From an uncultured Pseudomonadales bacterium (lineage in GTDB: Bacteria > Patescibacteriota > Microgenomatia > UBA1400 > PJMF01), in assembly GCA_964650185.1 (NCBI GenBank), contig CAZYRN010000006.1, forward strand, positions 168 to 64,167: 64,000 nt of DNA, in the 5' to 3' direction. Position numbers and translations under genes: made by a program. This document shows, piece by piece, positions 2,960-48,474 of this stretch. Each line of letters opens with the position of its first letter. Position 1 is the stretch's first letter. The notes beneath the pieces were generated by a model that made no database searches, was not told the origin of the DNA, and worked only from the letters and a program-made list of their open reading frames with translations.

Positions 2960-3027
2960 GTCTGCTCTACATTGTAATACAGATTGCTTTGCTAGCTGAG
3001 AACAAGATTTAGCTTTACAATAGCGCT

Positions 3028-27973: not shown

Positions 27974-28264
27974 GCAAGATACTGCAGTGACCCTAATGAT
28001 GAGTAGTGTTCATTTAATTCATGGAGAGTTTTCATCTCGTCTGCGCTAAGCTTGAAGTCAAAAATATCCAGGTTTTCTGCTTGATGGTCTTTTTGATTAG
28101 CCCTAGGAATTGGTACGGTGGCGAAGTGACCCGTAGGTGGAACCAGATTTACCCTTCATTATATAGAACATATCTTCGACTTAAAGAACTTGGATATACG
28201 TATAACAACGGCCAAGTAATTGCACCTTCTGTGATTAATAAAAAACCAAGAAAGGAGGTGTATT

Positions 28265-28777: not shown

Positions 28778-28805
28778 AGGGGTAGTTTAGCTAAAAAATA
28801 AGGAT

Positions 28806-29015
28806 ATGGCTGGATATCAGATTAACGAAAAAGATATTGAGAGCGTGATTCGTTTTCTTAAAGTAACGGATCCGGAGAATGCTACTCCTGAGATGGCAAT
28901 AGAGCTATTGGAGCATCTTAAGGCTAGTTTCCATACCATGGCACACGAAGATCCAGAAAAACTGGAAGAAATCTATAAAGAGTTGAAAAAACAGAAAGAA
29001 TTAAAGACTAACTAG
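28806..29015 (+). CDS. Hypothetical small protein
   Basis: 69-aa acidic helical ORF with RBS-like AAGGAT upstream. Confidence 0.3.
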   Translation: MAGYQINEKDIESVIRFLKVTDPENATPEMAIELLEHLKASFHTMAHEDPEKLEEIYKELKKQKELKTN

Positions 29016-29254
29016 TACGGCAAGATATCAGAAGATTCTAGATCAAGAGCTTTGACTAGTTTTAGCAGTGTAATTACAGACAAACTAGCTTCCCCACGCT
29101 CAACCTTGGCATAGTAGTTTCCATTGATGCCTGCTTTTTTGGCTACATCTAGCTGAGTTAGATCTTTTTCTAACCGCGCAGCCTTTAGTTTGTCACCAAT
29201 GGCATTTAATATTTTTGTGTCTTTTTGCCTTTTCATCTTGGTATAGTATATCAC
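29012..29254 (-). CDS. XRE-family HTH regulator
   Basis: LTQLDVAKKAGINGNYYAKVERGEASLSVITLLKLVKAL is a Cro/C1 HTH. Divergent from the recombinase-proximal genes. Confidence 0.6.
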   Translation of the reverse strand: MIYYTKMKRQKDTKILNAIGDKLKAARLEKDLTQLDVAKKAGINGNYYAKVERGEASLSVITLLKLVKALDLESSDILPY

Positions 29255-29280
29255 TCGAGTGTATTATCCTTCTAATAGGA

Positions 29281-29529
29281 ATGAATAAATCTTCAAAAAC
29301 ACATACATCAGAAAGCACTTTTGATCTTGATTCAATAGATCGTTCCGAAAAACTTCAAAAGGCAAGGGAGATATTAGGTGAGTTGGCTAATGAGTATTCA
29401 GACGATGAACTATGGAAAATTGTAACTGAAATTCAATTCCTGACAGATTGTTGGCTGGATGAGTTTGAACGGGAAATTTTTGATGGAAAGACATTGACGG
29501 AACTACTGACCGAGGAGGTAGAATTTTAA
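29281..29529 (+). CDS. Hypothetical small acidic protein
   Basis: 82 aa. Directly precedes the recombinase with a 2-nt gap. Confidence 0.3.
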   Translation: MNKSSKTHTSESTFDLDSIDRSEKLQKAREILGELANEYSDDELWKIVTEIQFLTDCWLDEFEREIFDGKTLTELLTEEVEF

Positions 29530-29531
29530 AA

Positions 29532-30986: not shown

Positions 30987-31845
30987 AGTTTTGGATGACT
31001 GCGAGTATATCCTTTTTATTTTTTATAGTGGTAATTTCTCTTCCTGTTGTGCTCGAGAAGCTAGTAAGAGTCTTCAAGTTAATATGACACAAAGCAATAA
31101 CTTTCCATTTTGCAAAGCTTAATAATTTCTTATCCTTTATGAATATTTCCAATCGAATAAACAAAGCTTCATACGCCATTACAAGTGCAAATAGATAAAT
31201 AAATGGCAAGTACATTACTGTCAATACCGAAGGAATAACTAAAGTTAGTAAGTTATGTGCGGATAATGCTTCCGTAAGACTTCCTATAGCAGTAAGGATG
31301 GAGTAAGACAAAATAAATATCCCATATCCAGCAATTAGGACTTTAAGTGGTCTTCTAACAATCATATATTCATCTCTACTATCCGCTAAAGCACTCATCG
31401 CTATCACTAGAAACAGGAATGGCATGAGAACAAACTCAATAGCAAATGAAAATGAATATAGACCAGTTAAAAACTCTACTAATATGGTAATAGCAAATGT
31501 CTCCAATAAAATTTTTTTAAATAATGAAGGGTCTTGGCTTGCTTTGTTTGTGTTGAGAAATAGAACCGTAGCGGTTCCAAAAAACCAAAAAATAGTATCT
31601 TTAAGTAAAAATATATCCCAAATACCTGCCTGCCTTAGTACTAATACCGATAATACTGAGTAAGCAAGCATGGCTAAAAAAGGAATAAGTATTTTCGGGT
31701 TAAAAAATGTATTTGCTACATTAAATAAACTTGTGCGTGTTTTACTGTTAATTAGAATGAAGATTATTAATATGACAACCCATGCTGCTAATGCTTTCTC
31801 TCGACCATTCATGGCATTTATTATTTCTAGTGCTGCCCTTTTCAT
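30961..31845 (-). CDS. Polytopic (about 8 TM) membrane protein of unknown family, translationally coupled to the upstream 793-aa gene
   Basis: 294 aa, highly hydrophobic. Its start overlaps the stop of 31842..34223 by 4 nt (ATGA). Confidence 0.5.
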   Translation of the reverse strand: MKRAALEIINAMNGREKALAAWVVILIIFILINSKTRTSLFNVANTFFNPKILIPFLAMLAYSVLSVLVLRQAGIWDIFLLKDTIFWFFGTATVLFLNTNKASQDPSLFKKILLETFAITILVEFLTGLYSFSFAIEFVLMPFLFLVIAMSALADSRDEYMIVRRPLKVLIAGYGIFILSYSILTAIGSLTEALSAHNLLTLVIPSVLTVMYLPFIYLFALVMAYEALFIRLEIFIKDKKLLSFAKWKVIALCHINLKTLTSFSSTTGREITTIKNKKDILAVIQNFNLAARSL

Positions 31846-34223: not shown

Positions 34224-34430
34224 GTTTTTGCTATATAAAAAAAGCCCAATTAAGGGCAGGCTTTCAAAAATTTATATTTTCCTTTCCCTGTCATTATACT
34301 TTATTTTCCCTTACTCCTTAAATCTTTCCCTGAGGTCTTTAACCTGACTTTAACCGCTTCAGATGTTAAAATTATGACTATAGAGATAGTAGTGTACTGC
34401 GTTGTATGAATTTCAATTAAAGGAAATAAT

Positions 34431-35903
34431 ATGCTTACTGGAAAACTTAGATCAGAAATAGATAAAGTATGGGATGCCTTTTGGACAGGTGGGATTTCTA
34501 ATCCTCTGACGGTTATCGAGCAAATCACCTACCTTCTATTTATCAAACGGCTGGACGAAATTCACACGCTCCGCGAAAACAAAGCAAATGCTCAAAAAAC
34601 TGAAATTGAAAAACCTATATTTTCCGATGATCAACAACATTTAAGATGGTCTCATTTTAAAGATCTTGAGCCTAAAGAAATGTACAAAGTGGTATCTGAA
34701 GAAGTATTCCCATTCATAAAGGACCTTAACGGCAAAACTGAAGATGCCTACACACAATACATGAAGGATGCGACCTTCATGATTCCTACTCCAAATCTGC
34801 TGGATAAAGTAGTTAACATGCTTAACGAAATTAAGATGCATGATAGGGATACAAAAGGTGATGTTTATGAATACCTACTTTCAAAAATTGCCACAGCAGG
34901 TAGAAACGGTCAGTTTAGAACCCCGCGACACATTATCAGAATGATGGTTGAACTGGTTGAGCCAAAGCAAACTGATAAAATTGCTGATCCAGCGTGTGGA
35001 ACTGGGGGCTTTTTGGTATCTACCAGCGAGTATGTCCGAGAAAACTATCCGGAAATGTTTACGGATGAGAAACTTCGCGATCATTTTAACAACACGATGT
35101 TTTATGGCAACGATTTTGATCGAACAATGATCCGCATTGCCGTAATGAATCTTGTGCTTCATGGTATTGAAAATCCTAATGTAACCGACAAAGATGCGCT
35201 ATCCCAAAGCCAAGCTTTGGAAAGAAATAAGTTTGAGGTAATTCTAGCTAATCCCCCGTTTAAAGGATCTCTGGACTACGAAGTTGTGGCTAATGATCTT
35301 TTGCAAACAGTGCGTACGAAGAAAACTGAACTGTTATTTATTGCACTTTTTATCCATCAATTAAAGACCGGAGGTAGAGCAGCAGTTATTGTGCCGGATG
35401 GGGTTTTGTTTGGTAGCTCACAAGCACATAAAGCCATTCGCAAGCTGCTGATAGATGAACATCAACTTCAAGGAGTTATCTCTATGCCATCCGGTGTATT
35501 CAAACCCTATGCCGGAGTCTCTACTGCTGTATTACTGTTTACCAAAACTAACTCCGGAGGAACAGACAAGGTTTGGTTTTATGATATGAAGGCGGATGGA
35601 TATTCACTAGACGACAAACGCCAACCTCTCGATCTTGAAAAACACGAAGACAATAATATTCCCGATATAATCAAGCGTTATCACAATCTCAAGGAGGAAG
35701 AAGATAGAGAAAGAACGGATCAATCATTCTTGGTACCAGTCAAAGAAATCCGCGACAATGATTACGATCTATCAGTCAACCGATATAAAGAAATTGAGTA
35801 TGAGGAAGTGGAATATGAGGAGCCGGAAAAAATCATTGAAGATTTAGAAAAATTGGAAGTGGAAATTCAGGAAGGGCTAAAAAAGCTAAAGTCAAAAATA
35901 TGA
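34431..35903 (+). CDS. hsdM: Type I restriction-modification system methyltransferase subunit
   Basis: HsdM N-domain. Motif I DPACGTGGFL. Motif IV NPPFKG. ISMPSGVFKPYAGVSTAVLLF. Confidence 0.9.
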   Translation: MLTGKLRSEIDKVWDAFWTGGISNPLTVIEQITYLLFIKRLDEIHTLRENKANAQKTEIEKPIFSDDQQHLRWSHFKDLEPKEMYKVVSEEVFPFIKDLNGKTEDAYTQYMKDATFMIPTPNLLDKVVNMLNEIKMHDRDTKGDVYEYLLSKIATAGRNGQFRTPRHIIRMMVELVEPKQTDKIADPACGTGGFLVSTSEYVRENYPEMFTDEKLRDHFNNTMFYGNDFDRTMIRIAVMNLVLHGIENPNVTDKDALSQSQALERNKFEVILANPPFKGSLDYEVVANDLLQTVRTKKTELLFIALFIHQLKTGGRAAVIVPDGVLFGSSQAHKAIRKLLIDEHQLQGVISMPSGVFKPYAGVSTAVLLFTKTNSGGTDKVWFYDMKADGYSLDDKRQPLDLEKHEDNNIPDIIKRYHNLKEEEDRERTDQSFLVPVKEIRDNDYDLSVNRYKEIEYEEVEYEEPEKIIEDLEKLEVEIQEGLKKLKSKI

Positions 35904-37000
35904 AATACATAGATTTGTTCGAAATTTGTCGACCCAAGCAGTGGAAGACAATATCTCAAAAAAATTTAAATACTGAAGGGTACCCTGTTTATGGGGCTAA
36001 TGGAATTATTGGCTATTATAAAGAATACAACCATGTGGAGCCCACAGTCATGATTACTTGTAGAGGGGCAACATGTGGAACAGTAAATATTAGCGATCCA
36101 AAGTCTTACATCACTGGTAATGCAATGTGTTTAGATGATTTATCTAGTGAGTTTGATAAAAAGTATCTTTTTTATTTCCTAACTAAAAGAGGTTTTGATG
36201 ATGTAATTTCTGGATCTGCACAACCACAAATCACCAGAACTGGTTTGAAAAAAGTCAAAGTGCCGTTTGTCCCTTTCAAAATCCAGCAGCAGATTGTGGA
36301 GATTTTGGACGAAGCCGATGCTGTGCGTAAAAAAAGGGAAAAAACTATTGAGAAATTGTCAGAACTAAAAAATGCAATTTACTACGAAATGTTTGGTGAT
36401 CCAATTAAAAACTCAAAAAATATTAAGACCAGGTTAATCAGGGATATAGCTACCGTTGTAAGAGGTAGCTCGCCTCGTCCTAAAGGAGACCCTGCATATT
36501 ACAATGGCCCAGTTCCTCGACTAATGGTAGAAGATTTAACAAGAGACGGGTTATATGTTCATGCTGAGGTCGACTCGTTGACTAAAGAAGGCGCAAAAAA
36601 GAGTAGGCCAATGAAAAAAAATGAAGTTGTAATAGTAGTAAGTGGGAATGTGGGAATAACAGCAATACTACAAGAAGACTGCTGCATACACGACGGTTTT
36701 GTGGGTTTACGTGACTTAAACCATAATGTTCTACCTGAATACCTTGCCATCACACTAAATAATATGACGGAAACTCACGAAAAGAGAAAAGCCGGGGCAA
36801 TCTTTAAAAACCTTACAACTACACAAATAAAAAATATGGAAGTACCTCTACCTTCACTTGAGGCGCAAGGGAAATTTACTGAACGTCTGAATATTGTTAA
36901 AGATACAAGTGACAACATCATAAATTCACAAGAGAGAATGTCGGACTTATTTAATCAGTTACTCAAAAAGTCGTTTAAAGGCGAGTTTAAGTTTAGCTAA
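35900..37000 (+). CDS. hsdS: Type I R-M specificity subunit
   Basis: Two TRD-like halves separated and followed by conserved helical repeats (VPFVPFKIQQQIVEILD and VPLPSLEAQGKF). ATGA overlap with hsdM. Confidence 0.8.
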   Translation: MKYIDLFEICRPKQWKTISQKNLNTEGYPVYGANGIIGYYKEYNHVEPTVMITCRGATCGTVNISDPKSYITGNAMCLDDLSSEFDKKYLFYFLTKRGFDDVISGSAQPQITRTGLKKVKVPFVPFKIQQQIVEILDEADAVRKKREKTIEKLSELKNAIYYEMFGDPIKNSKNIKTRLIRDIATVVRGSSPRPKGDPAYYNGPVPRLMVEDLTRDGLYVHAEVDSLTKEGAKKSRPMKKNEVVIVVSGNVGITAILQEDCCIHDGFVGLRDLNHNVLPEYLAITLNNMTETHEKRKAGAIFKNLTTTQIKNMEVPLPSLEAQGKFTERLNIVKDTSDNIINSQERMSDLFNQLLKKSFKGEFKFS

Positions 37001-37008
37001 ATAACATT

Positions 37009-39267
37009 ATGAACCAAAAGACAAAAAATAAAATCTGGCAGTTATTAGATTCGAAAAGATCGGAATATCCTACTGAACATTTCTTGGATGTTAATTTTGT
37101 AAAAGAAATGATTGATACAAACAATTTGAATAATGAAGAGATTGATGCACTAGAAAGTATTATCCTTGGAATTCAGCGAAATAGAATTGGTGAGTATGTT
37201 ACGCCAAATAACTTGGTTAGATTTCTTACAAGAATTGTTGAGCTTAATAATTCTGATGTGGTTATTGATCCAGTCTGCGGGACCGGAAATTTCTTAAAGG
37301 AGCTTTACAAGGAAAATTCCAAAGCGAGTTACTTTGGTATAGATATAAACTCGAAGATTATCGATTGGGCTAAAGAGTTTGCTAAACACAGAGAGCAGGA
37401 GATAAACTTTCTTAACCAAAATTCTCTAGAAGATTTCCCTACTACAGTGCCAAAAGCTAATTACATCTTCGCAAACTTGCCGTTTGGAGCAAAAGTCAAT
37501 AATAAACATCTGATAGAAAACTATGAGATACAGTCAAAAGAATTAGATATTTTACTGATACAAAAAATAATTAAATCCCTTAAGCAAGATGGGATAGCAT
37601 TTATCATTGCAACAGAAGGGCTTTTGTTCCGAAAATCTGCTGAAAGATTACGACAATTCATTTCTGAAAAAGCCTCTCTTGATGCAATCATATCTCTTCC
37701 CTCTGGGACGTTTGCACCATATACAAACATTAAAACGTCTGTACTAATTATCAGTAATAGAAAAAAGAATAAAACAGCCCTCTATGAACTAGAAAATATC
37801 CGTGAAGATAGTAAGGTTATAGAAGATATAAGAGCTCACCTTTCAGGCGAACAAACATCATATGGAGAGGTAATAGAGAACTTTAGCCAAAGAGAGAGTT
37901 GGTCAGTAAGTAGATACTATGGCGAAGTTAATAGGCAACGTCTATTGGATGCAATACCTCACAAATATGAACTAAAGAAGATTAAAGACATTTGTGAAAT
38001 AAAAACTCTAAGCCCGCAAGATATTGAGCGAGAAGAAATTGACTTAATAATCTCAAGCACATATAACCCTGGGAAACTACTTTCTTTAGAAGATATTCAA
38101 GATAAAAGCAGTAAAGCAAGGTACTTTACTCTAAAGATAACGGATCCTAAAGTTTCAAAAGATTACCTAAAGTTATTATTAAACAGTAGATATGCAAGCT
38201 TAGAAGAAGCATCTACCGGAATGACTATAAAGTCACTGAACAAAAAGGCGCTGGAAGATTTTGAAATCCCCATTGTTGATGAAGAAGTGCAGAATCATCT
38301 TGAAATCAAGATTAATAACATCGAATCTTTTAAAGACAAAGTAACGAGTTTAATAACAGAAATTAGGAAGGTCGAAGAAGGAGACATATTCAACTTCGAT
38401 TATGACCCCGAAAGTAGTTTGAATTCTATACTGGATAGCTCAATCCAATATCACGAATCTCTACCAAAACCTATTGCCTTAAGTTATTTCTCATATAGAA
38501 ATACACAGAACATTGATAAGAAATTTGACAGCATAGTTACTAGTTATTCAACAATTGTTAAGACACTGGGACTCATTTCTCTTATCGGCCTCTCAACTAT
38601 AGATGACGAGAGCTTGCCTAATAAAATAAGGGCCGAAATTAATCCATCACGGCCAATATCAGATGGGGTTTGGGGGAAACTAGTTCAACTAGCAGTAAAA
38701 AGATGTAAAGACATGAACTGCTTTCTATCTGATGAACTTAAATATATTGACTATAAAGAAATAGTTTCTTTGACTAACGAACTAACAGCAAATCGCAATA
38801 AAAAAGCTCATAACACCAAATCGTACTCAAAAATTCAAAAAGAAGCATTCATTGCAAGATTTCAAAACGATCTTGAGAGATTATTAGATCTGTTTTCCTT
38901 TCTATCGAAAGCACCGCTAGTCTACTTTGAAAAAACCGAAAAATTCCCCCCTCAAAAGATAGTACATACAGTCAGATATCTTGTCGGTGATGATATGCAC
39001 GATAAGGAAGACAACATTGAACTCCGTGAGGATTTTTACCAAACACTTTACTTGCTGAAAAATATACCGAACAAGAGTATCTCAATGTACCCACTTATGA
39101 TTTATGAGGATTCCGTAGAAATTGAATCGAAAGATATTTTTTTGTTCTCTGGATTAGATAAACGGGATAATCCTTACTATCTGAGCCTAAATAAGGGAGA
39201 GAAAATAGTAAGAGAAGAATACAGAGACGACGTCCATAGAGTATTTTATTACATATCAGAAAAATGA
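37009..39267 (+). CDS. Second gamma-class N6-adenine MTase domain fused to a TRD-like region and an about 350-aa C-terminal domain of unknown function
   Basis: Motif I VIDPVCGTGNFL. Motif IV ANLPFGAK. ISLPSGTFAPYTNIKTSVLII (HsdM-like). Then FEIPIVDEEVQNHLEIKINN, an HsdS-like conserved repeat. Unknown tail. No nuclease or helicase motifs. Confidence 0.55.
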   Translation: MNQKTKNKIWQLLDSKRSEYPTEHFLDVNFVKEMIDTNNLNNEEIDALESIILGIQRNRIGEYVTPNNLVRFLTRIVELNNSDVVIDPVCGTGNFLKELYKENSKASYFGIDINSKIIDWAKEFAKHREQEINFLNQNSLEDFPTTVPKANYIFANLPFGAKVNNKHLIENYEIQSKELDILLIQKIIKSLKQDGIAFIIATEGLLFRKSAERLRQFISEKASLDAIISLPSGTFAPYTNIKTSVLIISNRKKNKTALYELENIREDSKVIEDIRAHLSGEQTSYGEVIENFSQRESWSVSRYYGEVNRQRLLDAIPHKYELKKIKDICEIKTLSPQDIEREEIDLIISSTYNPGKLLSLEDIQDKSSKARYFTLKITDPKVSKDYLKLLLNSRYASLEEASTGMTIKSLNKKALEDFEIPIVDEEVQNHLEIKINNIESFKDKVTSLITEIRKVEEGDIFNFDYDPESSLNSILDSSIQYHESLPKPIALSYFSYRNTQNIDKKFDSIVTSYSTIVKTLGLISLIGLSTIDDESLPNKIRAEINPSRPISDGVWGKLVQLAVKRCKDMNCFLSDELKYIDYKEIVSLTNELTANRNKKAHNTKSYSKIQKEAFIARFQNDLERLLDLFSFLSKAPLVYFEKTEKFPPQKIVHTVRYLVGDDMHDKEDNIELREDFYQTLYLLKNIPNKSISMYPLMIYEDSVEIESKDIFLFSGLDKRDNPYYLSLNKGEKIVREEYRDDVHRVFYYISEK

Positions 39268-42200
39268 AAACAAACTTTACATTTCTACAAAAAGACTGGC
39301 CGCAGATTTATGAAGAAGCTTTACAAGCCGAACAGCATGGGTTCACAGCCCCGCGTACTTCTGTATTTTATGCCCGCCGGACAATAGAGCTAGTCATAAA
39401 CTGGCTTTATTTGCATGATCCGGATTTGCAACAGCCTTATGAAACCCATCTGGCAGCACTCATGCATGAACCGAGCTTTAAAAAGCTGCTGCCATATAAC
39501 CTCTTTCATTTAATAAACTACATTCGCAAGATCGGCAATCAAGCCGTTCATAGCAGAAAGCCAATCAGTGAAAAAGAATCACTTGCTGCATTAAGGAATC
39601 TTTATAACTTCTGCGAATGGATGGCAAAGCAGTATAGCCAGGAACAGCCGGAATTCCCTCAATATAGTGAATCAATAATTCCTCGCGATGGTGAGCAAGA
39701 TAAAAATGCTGAAGAATTAAGACAATTACAAGAGCAGCTTGATTCTAAAAACCAAGACTTTGAACAGCAGAAACTACTTTTAGTCGAATATGAAGAAGAG
39801 CTTAAAGAACTACGGGCTCAGGTCAAGATAACCAAAGAGAAGAATATAAAGACTGTTAGCCAGAAAGATTATTCAGAAGCAGAAACTCGCGAATTATTTA
39901 TCGACTTGTTGCTTAAAGAAGCTGGTTGGGATCCACAGGGAGAAAACGTAGCTGAGTACGAAGTGGAAGGTATGCCAAATAACAAAGGTATTGGATATGT
40001 AGATTATGTTTTATGGGGAGACGATGGGCTACCTTTGGGTTTGGTAGAAGCGAAGCGAACAACTCATGATGCCCAAAAAGGACAACGACAAGCTGAACTT
40101 TACGCTGATGCACTAGAAAGAAAATACGGACAAAGACCAGTAATATTCTATACCAATGGATACGATCATTGGATCTGGGAAGATGACATGTATCCTCCCC
40201 GACCGATCCAGGGTTTCTATACCAAGGATCAACTGCAAACAATGATTAATCGTCGTAATGCTCGAAAAAGTCTACTTGATGCTCCGGTGAACGATGAAAT
40301 TGCGGGAAGATACTATCAGAAACTGGCTATTCAACATGTCTTAGAGCAGTTTGAACAGAAGGATCGACGTTCATTGATAGTAATGGCAACAGGAACCGGC
40401 AAGACCAGAGTTTCCATTGCGTTAGTTGAACTTCTGATGAAGCAAGGTTGGATAAAAAATGTTTTATTCCTGGCAGATAGAAATGCTCTGTTAACTCAAG
40501 CAAAAGCAGCCTTTAATGATCTCTATCCGGAAGCAACAACAGTAGATATCACAAAAGAAAAAGAGGAAACAACATCAAGAATAGTTTTCTCCACCTACCC
40601 TACTATGATGAATATGATCGATGAAGCCAAGAAAGACGGAGTAAAAAGGTTTGGTGTCGGACGATTTGATTTGATTATTATTGATGAAGCTCATAGAAGT
40701 GTGTACCAAAAATATGGTGCTATCTTTGACTATTTTGATTCTTTGCTTATTGGTTTGACTGCTACACCAAAAGCAGAAGTGGACCACAACACCTATGAAC
40801 TATTTGGTTTGGAAGATCACAATCCTACATATTCTTATGAGTTAGATCAGGCAGTTGAGGATGGGTTTTTAGTTCCGCCTAGGCAAATTGAAGTGCCAAC
40901 CAAATTTTTATCGGAAGGTTTAACATATGACGAATTAAGTGATGAAGAAAAAGAAATGTATGAGATGACCTTTGAAGATGATGAAGGTCAACTACCTCTA
41001 ATGATTGCTCCCTCGCATTTTAATGATTGGGTGTTTAATACCGATACTATTGACAGTGTTTTAGCATATTTAATGGAAAACGGTATTAAAGTAGAAGGCG
41101 GAGATAGATTGGGTAAAACAATAATCTTTGCCAAAAATCATAAACACGCCATGTTTATTCAGGAGCGGTTTAATAAAAACTACCCATATTATGGTGGACG
41201 AGTTTTGCGGGTAATCGATAACTATGCGGATTATTCCCATACCTTAATCGATGAATTTAAGCAAAACAAGCCTGACAGTCCTTATATTGCAGTATCAGTA
41301 GATATGTTGGATACCGGAATTGATATTCCGGAAATTGTTAATTTAGTATTTTTTAAAATTACCAGGTCAAAAGCTAAATTCTGGCAAATGATAGGTCGTG
41401 GAACCCGTTTATGTCCCAAGTTGTTTGGCCCTGAAAGTCCTGAAGATGATAAGAAAGAATTCTTAATTTTTGATTTTTGTGGGAATTTCGAGTTCTTTAA
41501 AGTCAACCCTGAAGGAATTAAAGGCACAGCTCAGAAATCATTATCACAACTCATCTTTGAAAAACGTGTAGAGCTTGCTCATGAGTTACAAAGCGGCACT
41601 TATACAGATAACCAGGCTTTACAAGAACTGCGAACTAGTTTGCTAAACATCCTACATGAAGATGTATCACAGATGGATCCGCTAAGTTTTAACCTACGCA
41701 ATCACAAACGATACATTGATGAGTTTAGCAACAGAGATCGCTGGAATAACTTGAGCAAACAGGATGTGATCGACATTAATGAGCACATTGCTCCGTTTTC
41801 AAACTTAGTTGTTGATGAGGATGAGTTTGCCAGAAGATTTGATTCACTTATGCTGACGCTGCAAGTTGAGATGCTCAAAGACAACAGGAAACCAACTAAC
41901 AGTAAGCGACGGGTCATGACACTTGCAGAACTTCTTTTTGAGAAAGCTAATATTCCTGCTGTAGCTGAAAAGATCTCAACGATAAATAAGGTGCGAGAAG
42001 ACGCATTTTGGGAAAATCCATCAGTAGAAGAACTTGAAGAGGTACGAAGGGATCTTCGTGACTTAATCAAGCTGCTTGATCCACCAGACAGGAAAGCTGT
42101 TTACACTAATTTTACTGATACTGTTTATGACCCGGTGAGTACTGGAGGAAGTGCTATTGGAGACCGTCCGAATAGAGAAAACTATTTGAAAAGAGTACAG

Positions 42201-42659
42201 TCAATTATTCGAGAAAATGAATTTGTAACAGCGATTCAAAAAATTAGAAACAATGAAAAATTGGATGAAATGGATATTAAAGAGATAGAAGCTTTATTGA
42301 TAAACAGTTCATATGACATTGATAAAACAAAAATCGAGGAAATTCTTTCAGGACAGACATTAGGTGAATTTATTCGTGGACTGGTGGGGCTTGATAAAGA
42401 TGCTGCCAAAGCAGCCTTTGCAGAATTGATGCAAAAAAGAAATTTGAATGCAGCGCAGATGCAGTTTTTGGATAAAGTCATAGATCACATCGTAGCAACG
42501 GGCATTGTTAAGCCGGGCGATTTGTATGATCAACCATTCACCTTTTTAGATGACAGGGGTATTGATGGCGTATTTGAAGAAGCTGATAGAGATTATATAT
42601 TTGGAGTCTTAACTGGCATTAGGGCAAACGCACAGTTTGGGTTTGGAGGAATGGCATGA
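39264..42659 (+). CDS. hsdR: Type I R-M restriction subunit (helicase/endonuclease)
   Basis: PD-(D/E)xK core GYVDYVLWGDDGLPLGLVEAKR. Walker A MATGTGKT. DEAH-box IIIDEAHRS. Helicase C domain. ATGA overlaps on both sides. Confidence 0.9.
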   Translation: MKTNFTFLQKDWPQIYEEALQAEQHGFTAPRTSVFYARRTIELVINWLYLHDPDLQQPYETHLAALMHEPSFKKLLPYNLFHLINYIRKIGNQAVHSRKPISEKESLAALRNLYNFCEWMAKQYSQEQPEFPQYSESIIPRDGEQDKNAEELRQLQEQLDSKNQDFEQQKLLLVEYEEELKELRAQVKITKEKNIKTVSQKDYSEAETRELFIDLLLKEAGWDPQGENVAEYEVEGMPNNKGIGYVDYVLWGDDGLPLGLVEAKRTTHDAQKGQRQAELYADALERKYGQRPVIFYTNGYDHWIWEDDMYPPRPIQGFYTKDQLQTMINRRNARKSLLDAPVNDEIAGRYYQKLAIQHVLEQFEQKDRRSLIVMATGTGKTRVSIALVELLMKQGWIKNVLFLADRNALLTQAKAAFNDLYPEATTVDITKEKEETTSRIVFSTYPTMMNMIDEAKKDGVKRFGVGRFDLIIIDEAHRSVYQKYGAIFDYFDSLLIGLTATPKAEVDHNTYELFGLEDHNPTYSYELDQAVEDGFLVPPRQIEVPTKFLSEGLTYDELSDEEKEMYEMTFEDDEGQLPLMIAPSHFNDWVFNTDTIDSVLAYLMENGIKVEGGDRLGKTIIFAKNHKHAMFIQERFNKNYPYYGGRVLRVIDNYADYSHTLIDEFKQNKPDSPYIAVSVDMLDTGIDIPEIVNLVFFKITRSKAKFWQMIGRGTRLCPKLFGPESPEDDKKEFLIFDFCGNFEFFKVNPEGIKGTAQKSLSQLIFEKRVELAHELQSGTYTDNQALQELRTSLLNILHEDVSQMDPLSFNLRNHKRYIDEFSNRDRWNNLSKQDVIDINEHIAPFSNLVVDEDEFARRFDSLMLTLQVEMLKDNRKPTNSKRRVMTLAELLFEKANIPAVAEKISTINKVREDAFWENPSVEELEEVRRDLRDLIKLLDPPDRKAVYTNFTDTVYDPVSTGGSAIGDRPNRENYLKRVQSIIRENEFVTAIQKIRNNEKLDEMDIKEIEALLINSSYDIDKTKIEEILSGQTLGEFIRGLVGLDKDAAKAAFAELMQKRNLNAAQMQFLDKVIDHIVATGIVKPGDLYDQPFTFLDDRGIDGVFEEADRDYIFGVLTGIRANAQFGFGGMA

Positions 42660-43534
42660 GTATAAACGACAAAATTAAATATGAAGTAGCCCTCTCTTTT
42701 GCAGGTGAGCAACGCGACTACGTTAGAAAAGTTGCAGAAGTTTTAAAGGACAATAACGTCGATTGTTATTTTGATGAATTTGATGAAATAGAGTTATGGG
42801 GCAAGTATATGCCTGATCGCTTTCAAGAAGTTATGGGAGATAAGTCGAAGTACGCAGTAATATTTATTTCAGAAGAGTATAAAAATAAGTTTTATACAAA
42901 TTTAGAAAGAATGACATTGTTGACCTCTGATTTATTTAGAGAAGGTCGGTTACTTCCAGCAAAATTTGATGATACAAAGTTGCCTGGATTACCTGATGGT
43001 ATTAATTACGTGACTTTAAAAGATTTATCACCTGAAGAGTTTGCTAAAAAAATTATGCGGAAGATTGGTACCAAGACCAGTAAAGACGTAGTAGAAAATA
43101 AAGTGGCTGATTTTTATATACCAAAAACAAGAAAGTCTGTTAATCCAATTACACAACGGAAGGAATGGATTAAATATATTACTCAAGAGCTTAAAAGGCG
43201 TGCTGTAAAAGTCGATGGACTAGAGATGGACGATGATGATGAAGGATCACATCATAGAATATTGTTTCACTACAATGGAAAGACACTTGTCTCAATAAGA
43301 ATTATAAAAAACAGTATAGGGAATGATGGATTAGCTTTTGGGTTTGATTATGGCTATTCTTCTACTGGTGGCATGAACGCTTGGGGAGATTTTGATTGGA
43401 GTTTGGAGAAGGATGAGGAAATATTGAAAGTGCATGGAATGAGTTCCTTGGGAGATGGAGAATATACTAAAAAAGATTTAGTAGATGCACTGTGGAAAAA
43501 AATTACAAAGCACGTTGATGAGGAAAATACTTGA
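42656..43534 (+). CDS. TIR-domain protein (N-terminal TIR-like domain plus about 150-aa unknown C-terminal domain)
   Basis: KYEVALSFAGEQRDYVRKVAEVLKDNNVDCYFDEFDEIELWG...YAVIFISEEYKNKFYTNLE matches the bacterial TIR signature. Start overlaps the hsdR stop (ATGA). Confidence 0.55.
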   Translation: MSINDKIKYEVALSFAGEQRDYVRKVAEVLKDNNVDCYFDEFDEIELWGKYMPDRFQEVMGDKSKYAVIFISEEYKNKFYTNLERMTLLTSDLFREGRLLPAKFDDTKLPGLPDGINYVTLKDLSPEEFAKKIMRKIGTKTSKDVVENKVADFYIPKTRKSVNPITQRKEWIKYITQELKRRAVKVDGLEMDDDDEGSHHRILFHYNGKTLVSIRIIKNSIGNDGLAFGFDYGYSSTGGMNAWGDFDWSLEKDEEILKVHGMSSLGDGEYTKKDLVDALWKKITKHVDEENT

Positions 43535-44070
43535 TGAAAAGACAAATATTAGAAAAGCTTGATAACTCCCTGAGAAACTTTAAATCTGAAGCTGATGTGG
43601 TTTATATTTTGACGAGAATTGGAAAAATTCTAGAAATTGATGAAAAGAAACAAGATTATCCCGTTATTAACTTTTACCGTAATTGGTCCGTTCACAAACA
43701 AATTGACGATGTTGGCAATGTCAGACATTATTTAGAGGATTTCATTCATAACAAAGAGAATCGTGACAGCCTACTTTTTCATAAACCACTTTTTGAAGAA
43801 CTCAATTTATTTTCTAAAAATTACTCAGTGTCAAATTTAAGCGGGGAACAAGCAGCTGATTTTGCCTATCTATTAGGAAAAGTGATTTCAGATACTCCAG
43901 TTTTTATAAAATTTGATAGAACACATTACGAAATTTCAATTAGCGAACCAGTCAGTCGTGATCAAAGTGGAACTTACAAAATAAGCGTAAAAGTGAACGT
44001 TGAGCCTGTAAAAATGAAAATTACAACACCTCCCGTAGAGGCTAAGTATGAAGAAAAAGTGTCGAATTAA
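43534..44070 (+). CDS. Hypothetical 178-aa protein coupled to the TIR gene
   Basis: ATG overlaps the TIR stop by 1 nt (TGATG). No recognisable motif and no TM. Confidence 0.4.
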   Translation: MKRQILEKLDNSLRNFKSEADVVYILTRIGKILEIDEKKQDYPVINFYRNWSVHKQIDDVGNVRHYLEDFIHNKENRDSLLFHKPLFEELNLFSKNYSVSNLSGEQAADFAYLLGKVISDTPVFIKFDRTHYEISISEPVSRDQSGTYKISVKVNVEPVKMKITTPPVEAKYEEKVSN

Positions 44071-46295
44071 GATTTAGGGAATACGCCCTCAAACCACATT
44101 ATCGCTGCCTCCCCTTCTTTTTTGGTGATCTCATCTACGCTTCTACTGTGTCTTATACTGTTTCTAAGTTCAGATAATTGTGTAAATTTGTTATTAAGCA
44201 TCTCTTTATTGTTAAATACACTTGAAAATCTTTCCCATAAAGCATTGTTTGTGATAGTGTCTTGTAGATCTCTAAGGTCGAAGAATTCTAGTTTCCCTTT
44301 AAGTTTATTGTAGTACTTCTCATCTAAAGCAGGATTTCGTTTAGCTGACTTTGCCACTCTGTCATTAACTTTATCTTTAATGTGTTGTGGAATATCATCC
44401 TCTTTTTCATCCAGTGTAACTGAGATTAAACTTCTTAGTTGAAGCTCAACCTGCTCTATCTTCTCATCAAGTTCTCTTAGCGCTGGTGAAAGGTCAAGAC
44501 GTTCCTTGATCAGTAAATTTTCTATTGCTTCTTGAATGGTTCGTTGCCTTTCGGCAATAAATTCTTCAAAGTCATCCGGTGTAAAAGGATCGCGCATCAA
44601 TATTTCCTGAGCTTTAGGAGAAATAAAATGTGATTCTAGAATTCCTCTAACAGTACTTTCCCCGTTTGATTCGATTAGTTCAGGTAAATATTCGTTGGGC
44701 AGTCTGTCGTTAATGACTTTTCTATTGGTATCTGAAGTTAACGGTGTTCTATTGAGGATAGTATGTATCTTGCTGTCCCCCAAATGCTTCGATCCCCAAG
44801 AAGAAGGTACAATATGATGGTCATCCAGATCGCCATGTTGCGGAATATTCCCTGTCATCCAGTCTCTTGCTCCTTGAAGCACTAATAAATTAAACACACC
44901 ATTATAAATAGATGAACCTCTCTTTACTTCCTTTTTAAGATCTAGATTCCTAAATCTGGTCTTAAATTCAAGTATTAATGCCGGTTCAAGTGAATCATCT
45001 TCCATCCATGCTTTTACATCAAGAAAATCTCTGGCAGTAGTTGATTCGACTGAACCAGAATATCGATTGGTAAACACAGATGCCCAGTACCAATGTCGGA
45101 TTTTCCTTTGTGCATCAAGCTGCTTGTTGGACGATAAAGTCTTTACATGAGCTTGAAGCGAGGCGAATGCAGGTAATATCGAGATATAAGGCAAATAATC
45201 AGAAGAGGTCACACCAAACTCTTGTGGGTGGCTAATCAATTTTATAGCGTGTTCAAGAGCTGAGACTGCGTTGTTCCAGCTAGATTCAAATTCATCGGGA
45301 TTTTGCACTAAAATTTCTTTGCGACGGGTTCCATCCGGCTCGCGGATCGGTTTTTCTTGTCCAGGTAGCAAATAGTACAAATATTTAGGCGAACAATATG
45401 CTTGCTTTAAAATTGACATTACTTGAAGAATATATACATTCATTTTCTCTGTATTCACAAATTCTAGCTTGGAGGAGGCTTCGCGCCACATGTGCTTTAG
45501 TTGTAAGCCTTTAGGTTTTAAGAGAGCGTTTATAAGGTCAAAAATATCTAGTCGGACACCCTTGCTGTTTATTTGAGTGAAGATATCGCAAACTTTGTCG
45601 ATAGCCAGATCCTGATCTAGTTCAATATATGAAATTTGGTACTGCTCAGTTATTTCTTTAAGATGTTCACCAAATACGTGTGCATTTTGAGCATGAGTTA
45701 GAGCTAGTTTTTGTTCTTCTTCATTGTCATTAATAGATTCTGCTTTTTCTTTCCAATATTGTTCGTACTCTTGAACCCAATTTGGTAATTCCCAGCCTCC
45801 TTGGCCAATAATAGCCAGTGGAAAAATATGCTCTTTAAATTGAATCGTTCGATCACGCATTAATTTTGACCAACGCCTAGTAAGCCACTCATAACTAAAG
45901 GCATCGTCGAATTCATCGTTCATAAACTTATCTATTCGAACAAAGTAGTAGCATCTGCTTGACCGACTCGGCAGGGGAAGATCGGGAGCTAAAAATGCGT
46001 AATAGATTGCTGTTAAGCGTTGCTGACCATCTAGAACTATGTATTCGCGGTTTTCAGGTCCGGAATAACCATAAATATCCTCACAGGATAAGGCTTCAAA
46101 GTTTTCTTTTTTTCCCTTCCAGAGGAGTAAGCTGCCAATGTAATAATCTAGAAAAATGGAGCGCATGAGACTCTGTATATCCCAAGGTTTCCATTCAAAT
46201 TCACGTTGGAAATCCGGAATCACAAAACGACCTTCTTTTAGCCTATGAACGAGAGTATTTAGACTGACGTGATCTGGTTTTTGTGCATTTTTCAT
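44067..46295 (-). CDS. GmrSD-like type IV restriction enzyme family protein (DUF262 + DUF1524) with C-terminal HEPN-like (Rx4H) extension
   Basis: DUF262: DFQREFEWK...VLDGQQRLTAIY. DUF1524 His-Me finger: DDHHIVPSSW...NRTPLTSDTNRKVINDRLP. C-terminal ELRNSIRHSRS is an Rx4HxxS/HEPN-type motif. Confidence 0.7.
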   Translation of the reverse strand: MKNAQKPDHVSLNTLVHRLKEGRFVIPDFQREFEWKPWDIQSLMRSIFLDYYIGSLLLWKGKKENFEALSCEDIYGYSGPENREYIVLDGQQRLTAIYYAFLAPDLPLPSRSSRCYYFVRIDKFMNDEFDDAFSYEWLTRRWSKLMRDRTIQFKEHIFPLAIIGQGGWELPNWVQEYEQYWKEKAESINDNEEEQKLALTHAQNAHVFGEHLKEITEQYQISYIELDQDLAIDKVCDIFTQINSKGVRLDIFDLINALLKPKGLQLKHMWREASSKLEFVNTEKMNVYILQVMSILKQAYCSPKYLYYLLPGQEKPIREPDGTRRKEILVQNPDEFESSWNNAVSALEHAIKLISHPQEFGVTSSDYLPYISILPAFASLQAHVKTLSSNKQLDAQRKIRHWYWASVFTNRYSGSVESTTARDFLDVKAWMEDDSLEPALILEFKTRFRNLDLKKEVKRGSSIYNGVFNLLVLQGARDWMTGNIPQHGDLDDHHIVPSSWGSKHLGDSKIHTILNRTPLTSDTNRKVINDRLPNEYLPELIESNGESTVRGILESHFISPKAQEILMRDPFTPDDFEEFIAERQRTIQEAIENLLIKERLDLSPALRELDEKIEQVELQLRSLISVTLDEKEDDIPQHIKDKVNDRVAKSAKRNPALDEKYYNKLKGKLEFFDLRDLQDTITNNALWERFSSVFNNKEMLNNKFTQLSELRNSIRHSRSVDEITKKEGEAAIMWFEGVFPKS

Positions 46296-46325
46296 AATTG
46301 TCCTGATTATACCAAGAAAAACATC

Positions 46326-46739
46326 TTATAGGTTATTATTTATCAATTCATCAATTTTTTCACTGCTGGCTAGGTCTGTGGTTCGTAGTTCTATAAAATT
46401 GAAATTATTCTCAGTCAAAGCTTTTCTAACAAACTCATCCCGCGCTTTTCTTGATTTCCATGAGTGGGTTGAGTCGTTAAGTTCAATTATCAGTCTAGGG
46501 TTCATATCTTTATCGAAAATCACAAAATCTACAAAAAGTTTATTAAGCCAATCAAACTTTCCGGCTAAATCGTTTGTGTCATCTTTTACCTCAAGTATGG
46601 TTGATAAATGAAGCTGAGGGAAAACAAAGTAATCTTTCAATGCTTCATTGTTCTCTAGAATACTAAATAGCTTCAGTTCATTCCCAGTCAGAAAACGCTG
46701 TTTTCTTTTGAATGGATTTAGCTTTCCTTGTAAGAACAT
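46326..46739 (-). CDS. DUF2726-domain protein (restriction-endonuclease-like fold)
   Basis: VDFVIFDKDMNPRLIIELNDSTH...KARDEFVRKAL matches the DUF2726 core (D...E-L-D/N...K). Confidence 0.5.
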   Translation of the reverse strand: MFLQGKLNPFKRKQRFLTGNELKLFSILENNEALKDYFVFPQLHLSTILEVKDDTNDLAGKFDWLNKLFVDFVIFDKDMNPRLIIELNDSTHSWKSRKARDEFVRKALTENNFNFIELRTTDLASSEKIDELINNNL

Positions 46740-46802
46740 GACCCGCTCCCCTTATAGTTGTCACTAATTGTAATAAAATTAGTTTACTAGAAAGGAGCAA
46801 GC

Positions 46803-47060
46803 ATGGCAGGAATTTCCAATGAAATTAAAACTGAGGTTATTGCTAAAGTTAAAACTGGTCAAAAAGTTTCAGAATTATCCAAACAATATGGGGTCAGTGA
46901 CAAAACAATTTATAATTGGCTGCGAGGTCAGGTGACCGAGCAAGTTAGTTACCGAGAATATAAACGGGTGATGAAGGAGAATGAGGATTTAAAAAAAATC
47001 CTAGGAGTACTAACACTCGAGTTAGAGAAATCAAAAAAAAAGACGTACCGAAACAGCTAA
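46803..47060 (+). CDS. IS3-family transposase OrfA (HTH)
   Basis: MAGISNEIKTEVIAKVKTGQKVSELSKQYGVSDKTIYNWL is an IS3/IS911-type HTH. Leucine-zipper-like tail. Confidence 0.7.
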   Translation: MAGISNEIKTEVIAKVKTGQKVSELSKQYGVSDKTIYNWLRGQVTEQVSYREYKRVMKENEDLKKILGVLTLELEKSKKKTYRNS

Positions 47061-47910
47061 GCAAGTTAGTCATCTTCACCCTGAGTTAACTAAAAAGTTT
47101 GTAGCAGAGATGCTTGGCATTTCTAGACAGTGGCTGTACAAAATAGATTTTCTTCAGAACAGTAAAGATGAACTGTTAAAAGAGAAAATATTGTTTGTGT
47201 GGAGTTCTCACCCAAGTAAAGCCAGTTATGGCTATCGCCGACTTGCCATTGAGCTTGGAGTTGGTAAAAAACGAATTCGCCGCTGTATGAAGAAATATGG
47301 CTTAAAGCCATACAAAAGAAAATCCAGGTGGAGAAAAAGACGAGATGAAAGGAGAAAACCAGCACCATTTTCTAACCAGATTAAAAACCAGTTTCCGATT
47401 GTGCCAAACCACACTTGGGTGGGAGATTTTACATATTTACCATTCAAATGAAAATTTCTCTATTTAGCCACCTTCCTAGATTTATTTACCAGAGAGGTTG
47501 TGGGCTGGCATATTTACACAACTCACACAAAAAATCTGGTGATGCAGGCTTTTCTTGATGGACTGGTTAACCGTAATTTTCAGAAGCCAACCTACATCCA
47601 CTCTGACCAAGGAGTTGAATATACCTCCCAAGATTACACCAAACTAATCCAGGATTTTGGTATTCAAATATCTATGAGCTCCAAAGCTTCTCCTTGGGAA
47701 AATGGTTACCAAGAAAGTTTTTATAACAACTTTAAAACTGACCTTGGCTTAGAGTTTGACCGCTTCCAAGATGAAGGACATTTACTAGAAGCCATTCACC
47801 ACACACTTCACGACTACAACCACACCAGAATTCATTCCATATTAAAAATGCCTCCTTCCAGATTCCACGCCGAGTATTTACACTCCGTGTCTACGAAAAG
47901 GGGTGCTTGA
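47032..47910 (+). pseudogene. IS3-family transposase OrfB (integrase core), inactivated by nonsense codon; +1 relative to orfA
   Basis: WVGDFTYLPFK-[TGA]-KFLYLATFLDLFTREVVGW then HSDQGVEYTS...SSKASPWENG...DYNHTRIHS is the rve DDE core with a premature stop. The frame is reached from the orfA frame at the A9 tract, +1 rather than the usual -1. Confidence 0.6.
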
Positions 47911-47964
47911 CACATTTCTAGATTAATAAATCCTGCTGGTGAAATAAGGATAAGGGTTAATGGG

Positions 47965-48474
47965 ATGCAGAAAAAGTTGGGAAGCATTATAGACTTGAAT
48001 AAAACACAAAGAGAGTTGGCAAATATTGGTTTTCAGGTTTTAACCAAAATGAGTTGGTTATCTGTTGAGGATCTCAGTCCAAATGACAAAAAAATGCTGG
48101 AGGAAGAATACAGTCCCGCTCTGAAAAGTGCTACTTTTTCTATGATACCGGGAAGAGCTACAGAAATATATCAACTGACAATGACGTTGATGAAGGGTGC
48201 TAAAAGTTTGGGGCAGGTAAATCTTATTCCTGTTGTTATACGTGCAGATCAAAAAAAACTACCAGAAGAGCCAGAGTTGTTGATGCTCTTTAATGGCAAC
48301 GTTTATCAGTTAGATGAGGTCATGATGGCAGTCAGGGAATACCTACAGACTGAGGGAATAGCATTGGCCAACTTAAAGCCGGAAACAGAAGCACCAGATG
48401 AACTGATTATCAATGATCCTATAGGGATAAATCCTACTGGAGAAACTATGGTCTATATTGGAGAAACAACCTGA
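47965..48474 (+). CDS. Hypothetical protein
   Basis: 169-aa ORF. No assignable motif. Confidence 0.35.
   Translation: MQKKLGSIIDLNKTQRELANIGFQVLTKMSWLSVEDLSPNDKKMLEEEYSPALKSATFSMIPGRATEIYQLTMTLMKGAKSLGQVNLIPVVIRADQKKLPEEPELLMLFNGNVYQLDEVMMAVREYLQTEGIALANLKPETEAPDELIINDPIGINPTGETMVYIGETT

Follow-up and report, generated by a model that had tools for sequence, protein, structure and literature searches.

What does a TIR protein do in a restriction-modification (R-M) operon, and does it work together with the gene that follows it? The 64,000-nucleotide stretch of DNA analyzed here (the window) raises both questions, as the hsdR gene of an R-M operon is followed by a gene for a 292-aa TIR protein and this by a 178-aa ORF, the partner. 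HsdM, HsdS, and HsdR are encoded in a single operon, which places the system in type I and, more closely, among the EcoAI/type IB-like enzymes (Table 1).

Table 1. Features of the R-M operon and its surroundings, in window coordinates.
Feature	Position	Strand	Description	Evidence
hsdM	34431-35903	+	490 aa, type I R-M methyltransferase subunit, opens the chain	Pfam HsdM_N + N6_Mtase, E=1e-73; PADLOC MTase_I, E=2e-196
hsdS	35900-37000	+	366 aa, specificity subunit	Pfam Methylase_S, two stretches
X	37009-39267	+	752 aa, extra embedded protein	Pfam N6_Mtase, residues 58-268
hsdR	39264-42659	+	1131 aa, EcoAI/type IB-like restriction subunit	Pfam DUF4145, HSDR_N, ResIII, EcoEI_R_C; NCBIfam restrict_EcoAI, E=4e-82
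TIR-protein gene	42656-43534	+	292 aa	ORF, Pfam; AF2 model, mean pLDDT 85
TIR domain	42677-43066	+	residues 8-137; candidate catalytic Glu84, codon 42905-42907	
C-terminal domain of the TIR protein	43109-43528	+	residues 152-291, predicted alpha-beta7-alpha, frataxin-like fold	
178-aa ORF (partner)	43534-44070	+	orphan family; RNWSVH codons 43678-43695	
Tract 100% identical between window and strain L006	41802-43976	n/a		mismatch map
Hypervariable center of the partner gene	43640-43940	+		sliding identity vs L010; protein alignment
GmrSD-like type IV restriction gene	44067-46295	-	742 aa	Pfam GmrSD_N; PADLOC HEC-05, PDC-M55C

The earlier note on this DNA had described hsdM-hsdS-X-hsdR-TIR-ORF as one chain of overlapping stop and start codons. 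The genes do form a chain on one strand, with ATGA overlaps at hsdM/hsdS, X/hsdR, and hsdR/TIR and a TGATG at the TIR/partner junction (TIR stop at 43532-43534, partner ATG at 43534-43536); hsdS and X are the exception, with 8 nt between them. Shine-Dalgarno-like sequences precede both genes at the end of the chain, GGAGG at 42645-42649 (6 nt 5' of the TIR ATG) and GAGGA at 43520-43524 (9 nt 5' of the partner ATG). An alternative start for the partner, TTG at 43531, gives 179 aa instead of 178 aa. The TIR ORF and the 178-aa ORF are both real genes, since each belongs to a conserved family. The GmrSD-like gene is convergent with the chain, and its stop overlaps that of the partner by 4 nt. A scan for promoters and terminators told little, as shuffled sequence contained more promoter-like sites than the real one. 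Among the upstream products, HsdR carries DUF4145 as an N-terminal extension (Pfam), and X, which is 25% identical to HsdM, has a half-TRD-like region and matches the PADLOC profiles MTase_I, mad2, and Specificity_I (residues 320-457). The C-terminal part of X, to which no family is assigned, holds the motif RNKKAH at residue 596.

The N terminus of the 292-aa protein had been described as TIR-like and proved to be a genuine TIR domain. Residues 11-129 match Pfam TIR_2 (PF13676) with 49.1 bits against a cut-off of 28, and the AF2 model predicts a flavodoxin-like TIR fold that can be superposed on solved TIR domains. The catalytic-type Glu is kept. The family profile matches AbTIR (E=1e-13) and aligns 'wtnhE' with the 'WTNYE' (WxxxE) of that protein, whose Glu we take to be the catalytic one; the corresponding E84 is invariant in all 24 aligned family sequences. 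Judged by its sequence, the protein is a TIR of the NAD-cleaving type and would act as an NADase. Some bacterial TIR proteins make signals rather than deplete NAD, and this one may do either, as sequence cannot tell which.

In keeping with the earlier note, which saw no recognizable motifs in the C-terminal half of the TIR protein or in the 178-aa protein, neither has a match in Pfam, NCBIfam, PADLOC, or PDB sequences. The C-terminal half is nevertheless a defined domain: its model is an alpha-beta-alpha sandwich with a predicted frataxin/CyaY-like fold, and sequence comparison with frataxins gave no homology. The C-domain family comprises at least 225 clusters (50% identity) among 1.84e9 proteins. 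The domain always occupies the C-terminal position, and a TIR domain lies directly upstream in nine of ten longer proteins; hence, it forms an obligate unit with TIR. Proteins with both domains come mostly from uncultured bacteria. When two family members were used as tblastn queries against plasmids, the matches covered TIR only and included no full-length member, the best being a Bacillus cereus SIR2+TIR Thoeris-like locus that lacks the C-domain. We infer that the C-domain is most likely a sensor or regulator of the TIR domain.

Is the position of the TIR gene in an R-M operon an accident? The earlier note had likened it to effector genes nested within hsd loci, and placement in R-M operons is indeed a recurrent trait of the family. 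We surveyed eight independent loci, a small sample taken from the longest available contigs, in which the TIR relatives are 35-52% identical. In six of them the gene lies on the same strand directly after or inside an R-M operon, four of type I, one of type III, and one of type II. It follows hsdR in the window, stands last in the order hsdR-M-S-TIR at two loci (L001/L028 and L020), lies between hsdM and hsdS in L005, and comes after a type III mod-res pair in L019 and after a type II R-M pair in L014. The two contexts that are not directly within an R-M operon are L017, with a helicase and methyltransferase pair about 1.4 kb from the TIR gene, and L016, with no R-M genes near it. A search of metagenome contigs with a six-sequence C-domain alignment returned a single hit, a further copy of the L001 arrangement. 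TIR proteins are 41-56% identical between operons whose HsdM proteins are only 26% identical or that are of type III, which indicates that the TIR gene moves between R-M systems.

No ThsA-like effector accompanies the TIR gene at these loci. The absence of such a partner noted earlier holds for the scanned ORFs of the low-GC island at about 28-48 kb, among which there is no SIR2, SLOG, or Macro gene, and none lies within about 10 kb of the TIR gene in any of the eight contexts. What does recur, in six of the eight, is a small ORF on the same strand closely behind the TIR gene. These ORFs are non-homologous; those behind the TIR homologues encode a 107/108-aa protein (4-nt overlap), a Hypoth_Ymh protein, a 50-aa zinc ribbon, and a 234-aa protein. 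Several of the small ORFs downstream of TIR homologues contain an RNxxxH-type motif. The TIR protein could therefore need a variable partner, as the recurrence of small downstream ORFs would allow.

The 178-aa ORF is the occupant of this slot in the window, and the proposal that it is a conserved partner of the TIR protein did not survive the comparison of loci. When HMMs of the TIR C-domain and of the partner were run over all fetched loci, this species alone had both: none of the seven other TIR contexts has a partner homologue and none of the seven other partner contexts has a TIR gene. Only in this species are the two genes neighbors. Relatives whose GmrSD shares 98% of its amino acids (L009) keep the partner without hsd and TIR genes, and elsewhere it comes after membrane/HExxH proteins or a HerA-like ATPase. 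The partner comes from an orphan family with some 40 clusters, and its modeled structure is helical with a small sheet, with no match in Pfam, in PDB, or by fold. It carries an Rx4-6H motif of the HEPN kind (R49-N-W-S-V-H54), in which H54 is invariant and R49 present in 15 of the 16 aligned sequences; comparison with known HEPN domains gave no match in sequence or fold. Three further ideas about the partner were rejected. A phage-derived or anti-defense origin found no match in 50,697 phage records, IMG/VR, and BFVD, and BLAST and hhalign showed no homology to the small ORFs that follow TIR genes elsewhere. A functional tie to GmrSD failed as well, the link being kept only in close relatives and absent from other partner contexts. 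The 178-aa ORF is probably a separate orphan gene and not an obligate part of the TIR system.

The comparison with closely related genomes adds a recent event to this picture. Strain L006 differs from the window in the target-recognition domains of hsdS, and most of the hsd operon is 91-94% identical between the two. The stretch at 41802-43976, by contrast, is 100% identical, a recombination tract that runs from the 3' end of hsdR through the entire TIR gene into the partner gene, of which it takes in the first 443 nt (four-fifths); pS is 0.26-0.36 for hsdM, X, and hsdR and 0 for TIR. In the TIR-less relatives (L010) the partner allele has 50-70% nucleotide identity to that of the window between 43640 and 43940, and the DNA beyond 43940 is 93-100% identical. 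A cassette boundary between TIR and partner was considered and dropped, as finer mapping puts the breakpoints of recent homology inside the 3' end of the partner gene. The shared identical tract and the TGATG overlap leave room for a local functional link between the two genes.

Could the TIR protein and the 178-aa protein then be a true two-gene system in this lineage, the one a signal generator or toxin and the other a novel effector, inhibitor, or antitoxin? Other lineages would in that case fill the downstream slot with non-homologous, functionally analogous small proteins, and the tightly coupled ORFs behind TIR homologues, several with the RNxxxH-type motif, agree with this. So do the overlap and the Shine-Dalgarno-like sequence ahead of the partner, and a tract of full identity that spans TIR and 443 nt of the partner next to hsd genes differing by 6-9%. 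The partner allele of TIR-less relatives has diverged exactly in the central 300 nt, as expected if the center co-varies with the upstream gene, and two-protein TIR systems are known (PMC11350192). However, the two families never co-occur outside this species in the fetched loci, and the partner stays beside GmrSD without TIR or sits behind the membrane/HExxH proteins or HerA-like ATPase mentioned above. Its model contains no SLOG, Macro, SIR2, STING, or SAVED-like fold, and there is no detectable similarity between it and the downstream ORFs of other TIR loci. We regard a two-gene system as unlikely, while giving it some weight. In a PrrC-like arrangement, the Hsd complex would hold the TIR protein inactive through the C-domain until a phage anti-restriction protein disables the enzyme; the TIR protein, freed or activated, would then kill the cell by depleting NAD+. 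PrrC and PARIS are precedents for guardians of R-M systems (PMC12707154), R-M operons are a recurrent site of the family, and coupling to hsdR would match synthesis levels. Between the window and L001, moreover, the TIR gene has diverged about as far as the type IB-like hsd genes (identity 47% for TIR, 50% for hsdM, and 32% for hsdR). Family members nevertheless sit in operons of two unrelated type I families and next to a type III and a type II pair, which argues against a specific physical guard by one Hsd complex, a conserved C-domain being unlikely to dock onto such different enzymes. At least one member (L016) has no R-M system nearby, and the Pfam scan found no ATPase or anticodon-nuclease architecture, so that we consider guarding of this kind rather improbable.

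A further reading, to which we assign a small probability, treats the family with TIR and frataxin-fold domains as a module dedicated to backing up restriction, in which the C-domain reads the failure or action of the R-M system with the help of a lineage-specific small downstream protein. An anti-restriction protein, stalled translocation, or restriction fragments would be the signal for NAD+ destruction. The fast-evolving small protein (the 178-aa orphan, the 107-aa protein, and Hypoth_Ymh would be candidates, several of them with RNxxxH) would tune the trigger through its hypervariable core. Least probable in our judgment, and very unlikely, is a split Thoeris-like system in which a ThsB-like sensor and signal generator makes a cADPR-type product that activates an effector encoded elsewhere. 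Direct sensing of phage proteins is known for TIR proteins of the ThsB type (PMC11312562), and 20 of 24 family members match a PADLOC ThsB profile at E<=1e-3. Known Thoeris genes adjoin each other, however, and with SIR2, SLOG, and Macro genes missing around all eight TIR loci, no neighbor could play ThsA; the window protein itself reaches only E=0.0098 against ThsB, with the TIR part alone.

Among known systems, the protein resembles stand-alone TIR effectors in its TIR_2-type domain with the WxxxE Glu, in the lack of a ThsA-like effector, and in the abortive outcome to be expected; it differs from them in a frataxin-fold C-domain absent from Pfam, PADLOC, and NCBIfam and in its habitual site in R-M operons. 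From Thoeris ThsB, which it matches weakly, it is set apart by a different C-terminal domain and by the lack of an adjacent ThsA in any context. The PADLOC profile PDC-S66 matches the TIR domain at E=2e-10 and all 24 family members. We rejected membership, as the alignment (residues 5-101) is confined to the TIR part of the profile, positions 145-239 of 282; in PDC-S66 the TIR domain is C-terminal, whereas here it is N-terminal and joined to a different second domain. Like PrrC and RloC, the TIR gene is an accessory gene of the suicide type, nested in or joined to a type I R-M operon (here by an ATGA with hsdR) and conceptually a back-up layer. Unlike them, it encodes no ABC-ATPase or HEPN anticodon-nuclease domain, only TIR_2 and the frataxin-like fold being found, and its relatives are found with type II and type III operons as well. 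TgvAB, a GmrSD-like system in a type I R-M operon of Vibrio cholerae (PMC11411939), is a parallel for an independent defense module embedded in type I R-M as a complementary layer. A GmrSD-like gene abuts the operon here too, although it is convergent and outside the operon, and proteins and mechanism differ. The TIR gene also shares its embedded position in a type I R-M operon with the 'guilt-by-embedding' candidates from type I R-M, BREX, and DISARM operons; defense functions are over-represented among genes so placed in type I R-M operons (Payne et al. 2024, bioRxiv 10.1101/2024.01.29.577857).

We therefore lean, with guarded confidence, toward a self-contained two-domain TIR immune effector, a mobile R-M accessory that provides an abortive-infection layer and to which the partner does not belong. 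Defense by a single TIR protein that depends on the catalytic residues of its TIR domain has precedents (PMC11350192), and the 292-aa protein is an R-M-embedded and probably single-gene candidate for abortive infection. On this view the gene is mobile and has settled time and again inside R-M operons or at their 3' ends; in the window it is translationally coupled to hsdR and would be co-transcribed with it. A phage that escaped restriction would be sensed, most likely by the C-domain; TIR domains would then come together and break down NAD+, perhaps with an ADPR-derived nucleotide as a further product. Infection would stop, giving the cell a second, abortive-infection layer behind restriction.

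The 178-aa ORF carries a more general lesson, namely that overlapping stop and start codons do not prove a functional pair. If the reading of the TIR protein as an abortive-infection effector is right, a widespread and so far unannotated TIR architecture joins the catalogue of bacterial immune effectors, and its C-domain is a candidate for a new phage-sensing or regulatory module of TIR enzymes. The family would then illustrate how nature physically joins a suicide layer aimed at NAD to restriction systems of types I, II, and III, and would be a compact case for asking how first-line and abortive defenses are co-regulated.

The gene that follows hsdR encodes a two-domain protein, and its N terminus, claimed to be a TIR domain from sequence alone, held up on modeling. 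Residues 11 to 129 match Pfam TIR_2 at 49.1 bits (cutoff, 28), and the AlphaFold2 model (24 homologues; mean pLDDT, 85) has a disordered linker at residues 140 to 151 between the domains. A profile built from this protein's family matches AbTIR (E = 1e−13), with "wtnhE" opposite AbTIR "WTNYE"; Glu84 (codon 42905-42907), the counterpart of the glutamate at this catalytic position, is invariant in the family alignment. The C-domain (residues ~152 to 291) is modeled as a run of seven strands with one helix before it and one after it. No PDB chain is related to it by sequence, and its match to frataxin, seen in the model, is taken here as a fold resemblance only. A C-domain HMM retrieved 225 clusters (E ≤ 1e−3) among 1.84 billion representative proteins. 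The domain is C-terminal in every cluster, and TIR_2 lies directly upstream in nine of 10 longer proteins checked, one of them a 1,120-aa TPR-TIR-C-domain protein; TIR and C-domain thus form an obligate unit. The libraries searched hold no model of the whole protein: PADLOC PDC-S66 aligns through the TIR part only (profile positions 145 to 239 of 282), and matches to ThsB profiles are weak. Full-length family members were found neither in 72,556 plasmids nor in IMG/VR.

[quoted passage not shown] The earlier note described one chain of overlapping stop and start codons from hsdM onward; this is correct for hsdM/hsdS, X/hsdR, and hsdR/TIR (ATGA) and for TIR/178-aa ORF (TGATG), but 8 nt separate hsdS from X. 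The chain lies in a block of 35 to 38% GC (flanks, 41 to 47%). Genes for a PLD-like protein, a large serine recombinase, a DUF2726 protein, and, convergent with the chain, a GmrSD-like protein lie there too, along with IS3 fragments, and the block is probably an integrated mobile defense island.

Features of the low-GC block and of homologous contigs (chain genes from the ORF map and the raw sequence)
Feature	Sequence	Position	Strand
Low-GC block	window	~28000-48000	
PLDc_2 gene, near block start	window	28265-28777	
Large serine recombinase, near block start	window	29532-30986	
294-aa and 793-aa genes	window	30961-34223	-
hsdM	window	34431-35903	+
hsdS	window	35900-37000	+
X	window	37009-39267	+
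hsdR	window	39264-42659	+
GGAGG, Shine-Dalgarno-like, ahead of TIR gene	window	42645-42649	
TIR gene (292 aa)	window	42656-43534	+
GAGGA, Shine-Dalgarno-like, ahead of 178-aa ORF	window	43520-43524	
178-aa ORF	window	43534-44070	+
GmrSD-like gene (742 aa)	window	44067-46295	-
IS3-family transposase ORFs	window	46741-47910	
Membrane-anchored protein	L021	878-1915	
Membrane-anchored protein	L024	5073-5813	
Small ORF by TIR homologue	L001	10882-11205	
Small ORF by TIR homologue	L020	10882-11208	
Small ORF by TIR homologue	L005	10913-11665	
Small ORF by TIR homologue	L014	10890-11042	
Small ORFs by TIR homologue	L016	9257-9865; 10935-11639	

Several other genes of the block deserve mention. Ahead of its HSDR_N nuclease domain, HsdR carries an N-terminal DUF4145 extension (residues 27 to 111; window 39264-39600), which is absent from the 940-aa HsdR of the L001 and L020 operons. 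Between the window and the conspecific contig L006, the target-recognition regions of hsdS are unrelated (35904-36964 versus 2276-3432; 366 versus 398 aa) despite 91 to 94% identity of hsdM and hsdR, a swap of the specificity subunit. X, itself an embedded gene, encodes an additional methyltransferase-plus-TRD-like protein of 752 aa (N6_Mtase, residues 58 to 268; one TRD-like region, residues 320 to 457) that is 25% identical to HsdM and also matches the MADS mad2 profile; its C-terminal third (~290 aa) is unannotated and has a HEPN-like RNKKAH motif at residue 596, and the gene is kept in L006 (pN/pS, 0.16). Directly upstream of hsdM and divergent from it, two overlapping genes, whose products match nothing in Pfam or NCBIfam, may be another uncharacterized defense pair; by eye, the 793-aa protein, also encoded in L006, has a CxxC...CxxC zinc-ribbon-like stretch and, near its C terminus, a D...E-A-K (PD-(D/E)xK-like) stretch. 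The GmrSD-like protein matches PADLOC PDC-M34B at its C terminus (residues 612 to 722), with RNSIRH at residue 711, and its stop shares 4 nt with that of the convergent 178-aa gene, as in the conspecific L007 and the relatives L009 to L012. The IS3 ORFs (HTH and rve fragments that seem to be split) start where homology to L007 stops, and DUF2726 has 137 aa here versus 179 aa in L007 and L009; hence, the insertion took away its N terminus.

We compared eight independent contexts of TIR homologues. In six, an R-M operon on the same strand either contains the gene or directly precedes it. Besides the hsdR-TIR order of the window and its strains L006 and L007, P0004 (47% identical; several contigs) has hsdR-hsdM-hsdS-TIR-107aa, and P0003 (47%) repeats this order on a contig that resembles a conjugative element. 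P0007 (41%) lies in hsdM-DUF3800-266aa-TIR-Hypoth_Ymh-hsdS-AbiJ_NTD4-AAA_15-hsdR, P0006 (a Microgenomates MAG) follows RadC and type III mod and res, and P0008 (35%) follows RE_R_Pab1 and a methyltransferase. P0017 lies in an integrase island with a helicase-methyltransferase pair 1.4 kb away, and P0010 has no recognizable defense neighbors. Between the window and L001, TIR is 47%, hsdM 50%, and hsdR 32% identical; against L005, hsdM is only 26% identical and the HsdR family differs, yet TIR is still 41% identical; and the type III-linked TIR is 52 to 56% identical to those of L001 and L020. These identities show the TIR gene passing from one R-M system to another, which fits the "guilt-by-embedding" pattern published for type I R-M, BREX, and DISARM operons (bioRxiv 10.1101/2024.01.29.577857); its placement also fits the TgvAB example (PMC11411939). 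Small, tightly spaced, mutually unrelated ORFs usually follow the TIR homologues (in L016, one also precedes), and several have R[NK]xxxH motifs: R[KN]DVNH (107/108-aa proteins), RNEKAH (Hypoth_Ymh), and RNNFEH (L016_202). Such ORFs may mark a variable partner slot.

The 178-aa protein had been taken for a partner of the TIR protein, a claim that the comparison does not bear out. With HMMs of the C-domain and of the 178-aa family run on every ORF of all fetched loci, the two occurred together only in the window and two conspecific contigs. Relatives with a 98%-identical GmrSD lack the hsd-TIR cassette and keep the 178-aa gene (66% identical), preceded there by an unannotated 126-aa ORF. Other homologues follow membrane proteins with an HExxH motif (L021 and L024), a multi-TM protein (L013), a TM protein (a Paceibacterota MAG), or a HerA-like ATPase adjoining a type III R-M pair, or adjoin a Panacea antitoxin. 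The proteins of L021 and L024, both metagenomic contigs, are unannotated, anchored N-terminally, and 37% identical, with SHETAHAINY and KHEVIHAIIY as conserved HExxH-type motifs; the 178-aa homologues lie 4 nt downstream, perhaps another conserved pairing in which this family takes part. The family is a tight orphan (15 relatives in the first search, 40 by profile search; all 153 to 186 aa, without a Pfam domain). The AF2 model (mean pLDDT, 82.6) combines seven helices with a three-stranded sheet. It has no significant structural relative, and BFVD, PDB sequences, and phage records gave no match. A conserved motif, RNWSVH (residues 49 to 54), looks HEPN-like; relaxed Pfam and hhalign searches did not support that assignment.

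Could the two genes nevertheless form a lineage-specific system? Against L006, hsdM, X, and hsdR are 91 to 94% identical (pS, 0.26 to 0.36). A 2.2-kb tract (41802-43976) is 100% identical: it runs from the hsdR 3′ end through the entire TIR gene to nt 443 of the 178-aa gene, and mismatches cluster right after it (43977-44088). This pattern indicates a recent recombination or sweep of that segment, so that, within the species, the TIR gene travels together with the larger part of the 178-aa gene as a single recombination unit, with breakpoints in the 3′ end of the latter. A local functional link is thus possible, but the pair does not thereby become a conserved system, and given the co-occurrence in one species only, we consider a two-gene system unlikely. 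Against L010, a TIR-less relative, DNA before 43520 is unrelated; identity is then 84% over the initial 110 nt of the 178-aa gene, 50 to 70% over 43640-43940, and 93 to 100% beyond. The central 300 nt are thus hypervariable between alleles; the ends of the gene and the adjacent GmrSD gene are 84 to 100% identical, a mosaic or diversifying pattern.

A guardian of the restriction enzyme is quite unlikely: PrrC docks onto one particular Hsd enzyme (PMC12707154), and the movement of the TIR gene across R-M systems argues against such docking. We give even less credence to a dedicated backup module for restriction whose small partners evolve fast. The least probable seems to be a ThsB-like protein that generates a signal for a distal effector; as the earlier note had observed for the window, a SIR2/SLOG/Macro ThsA-like gene is absent, and this extends to all eight contexts.

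The libraries searched describe neither this family, in which a TIR domain is joined to a frataxin-fold domain, nor the orphan family of the 178-aa protein. TIR and other accessory defense genes that sit inside type I R-M operons form an established category. We lean toward the hypothesis that the TIR protein is a self-contained effector, which would add an abortive-infection layer to R-M operons, with the C-domain as its putative sensor or regulator. NAD+ cleavage, the trigger, and the effect on the cell would then follow the behavior of single-protein TIR systems, which require their catalytic residues (PMC11350192).
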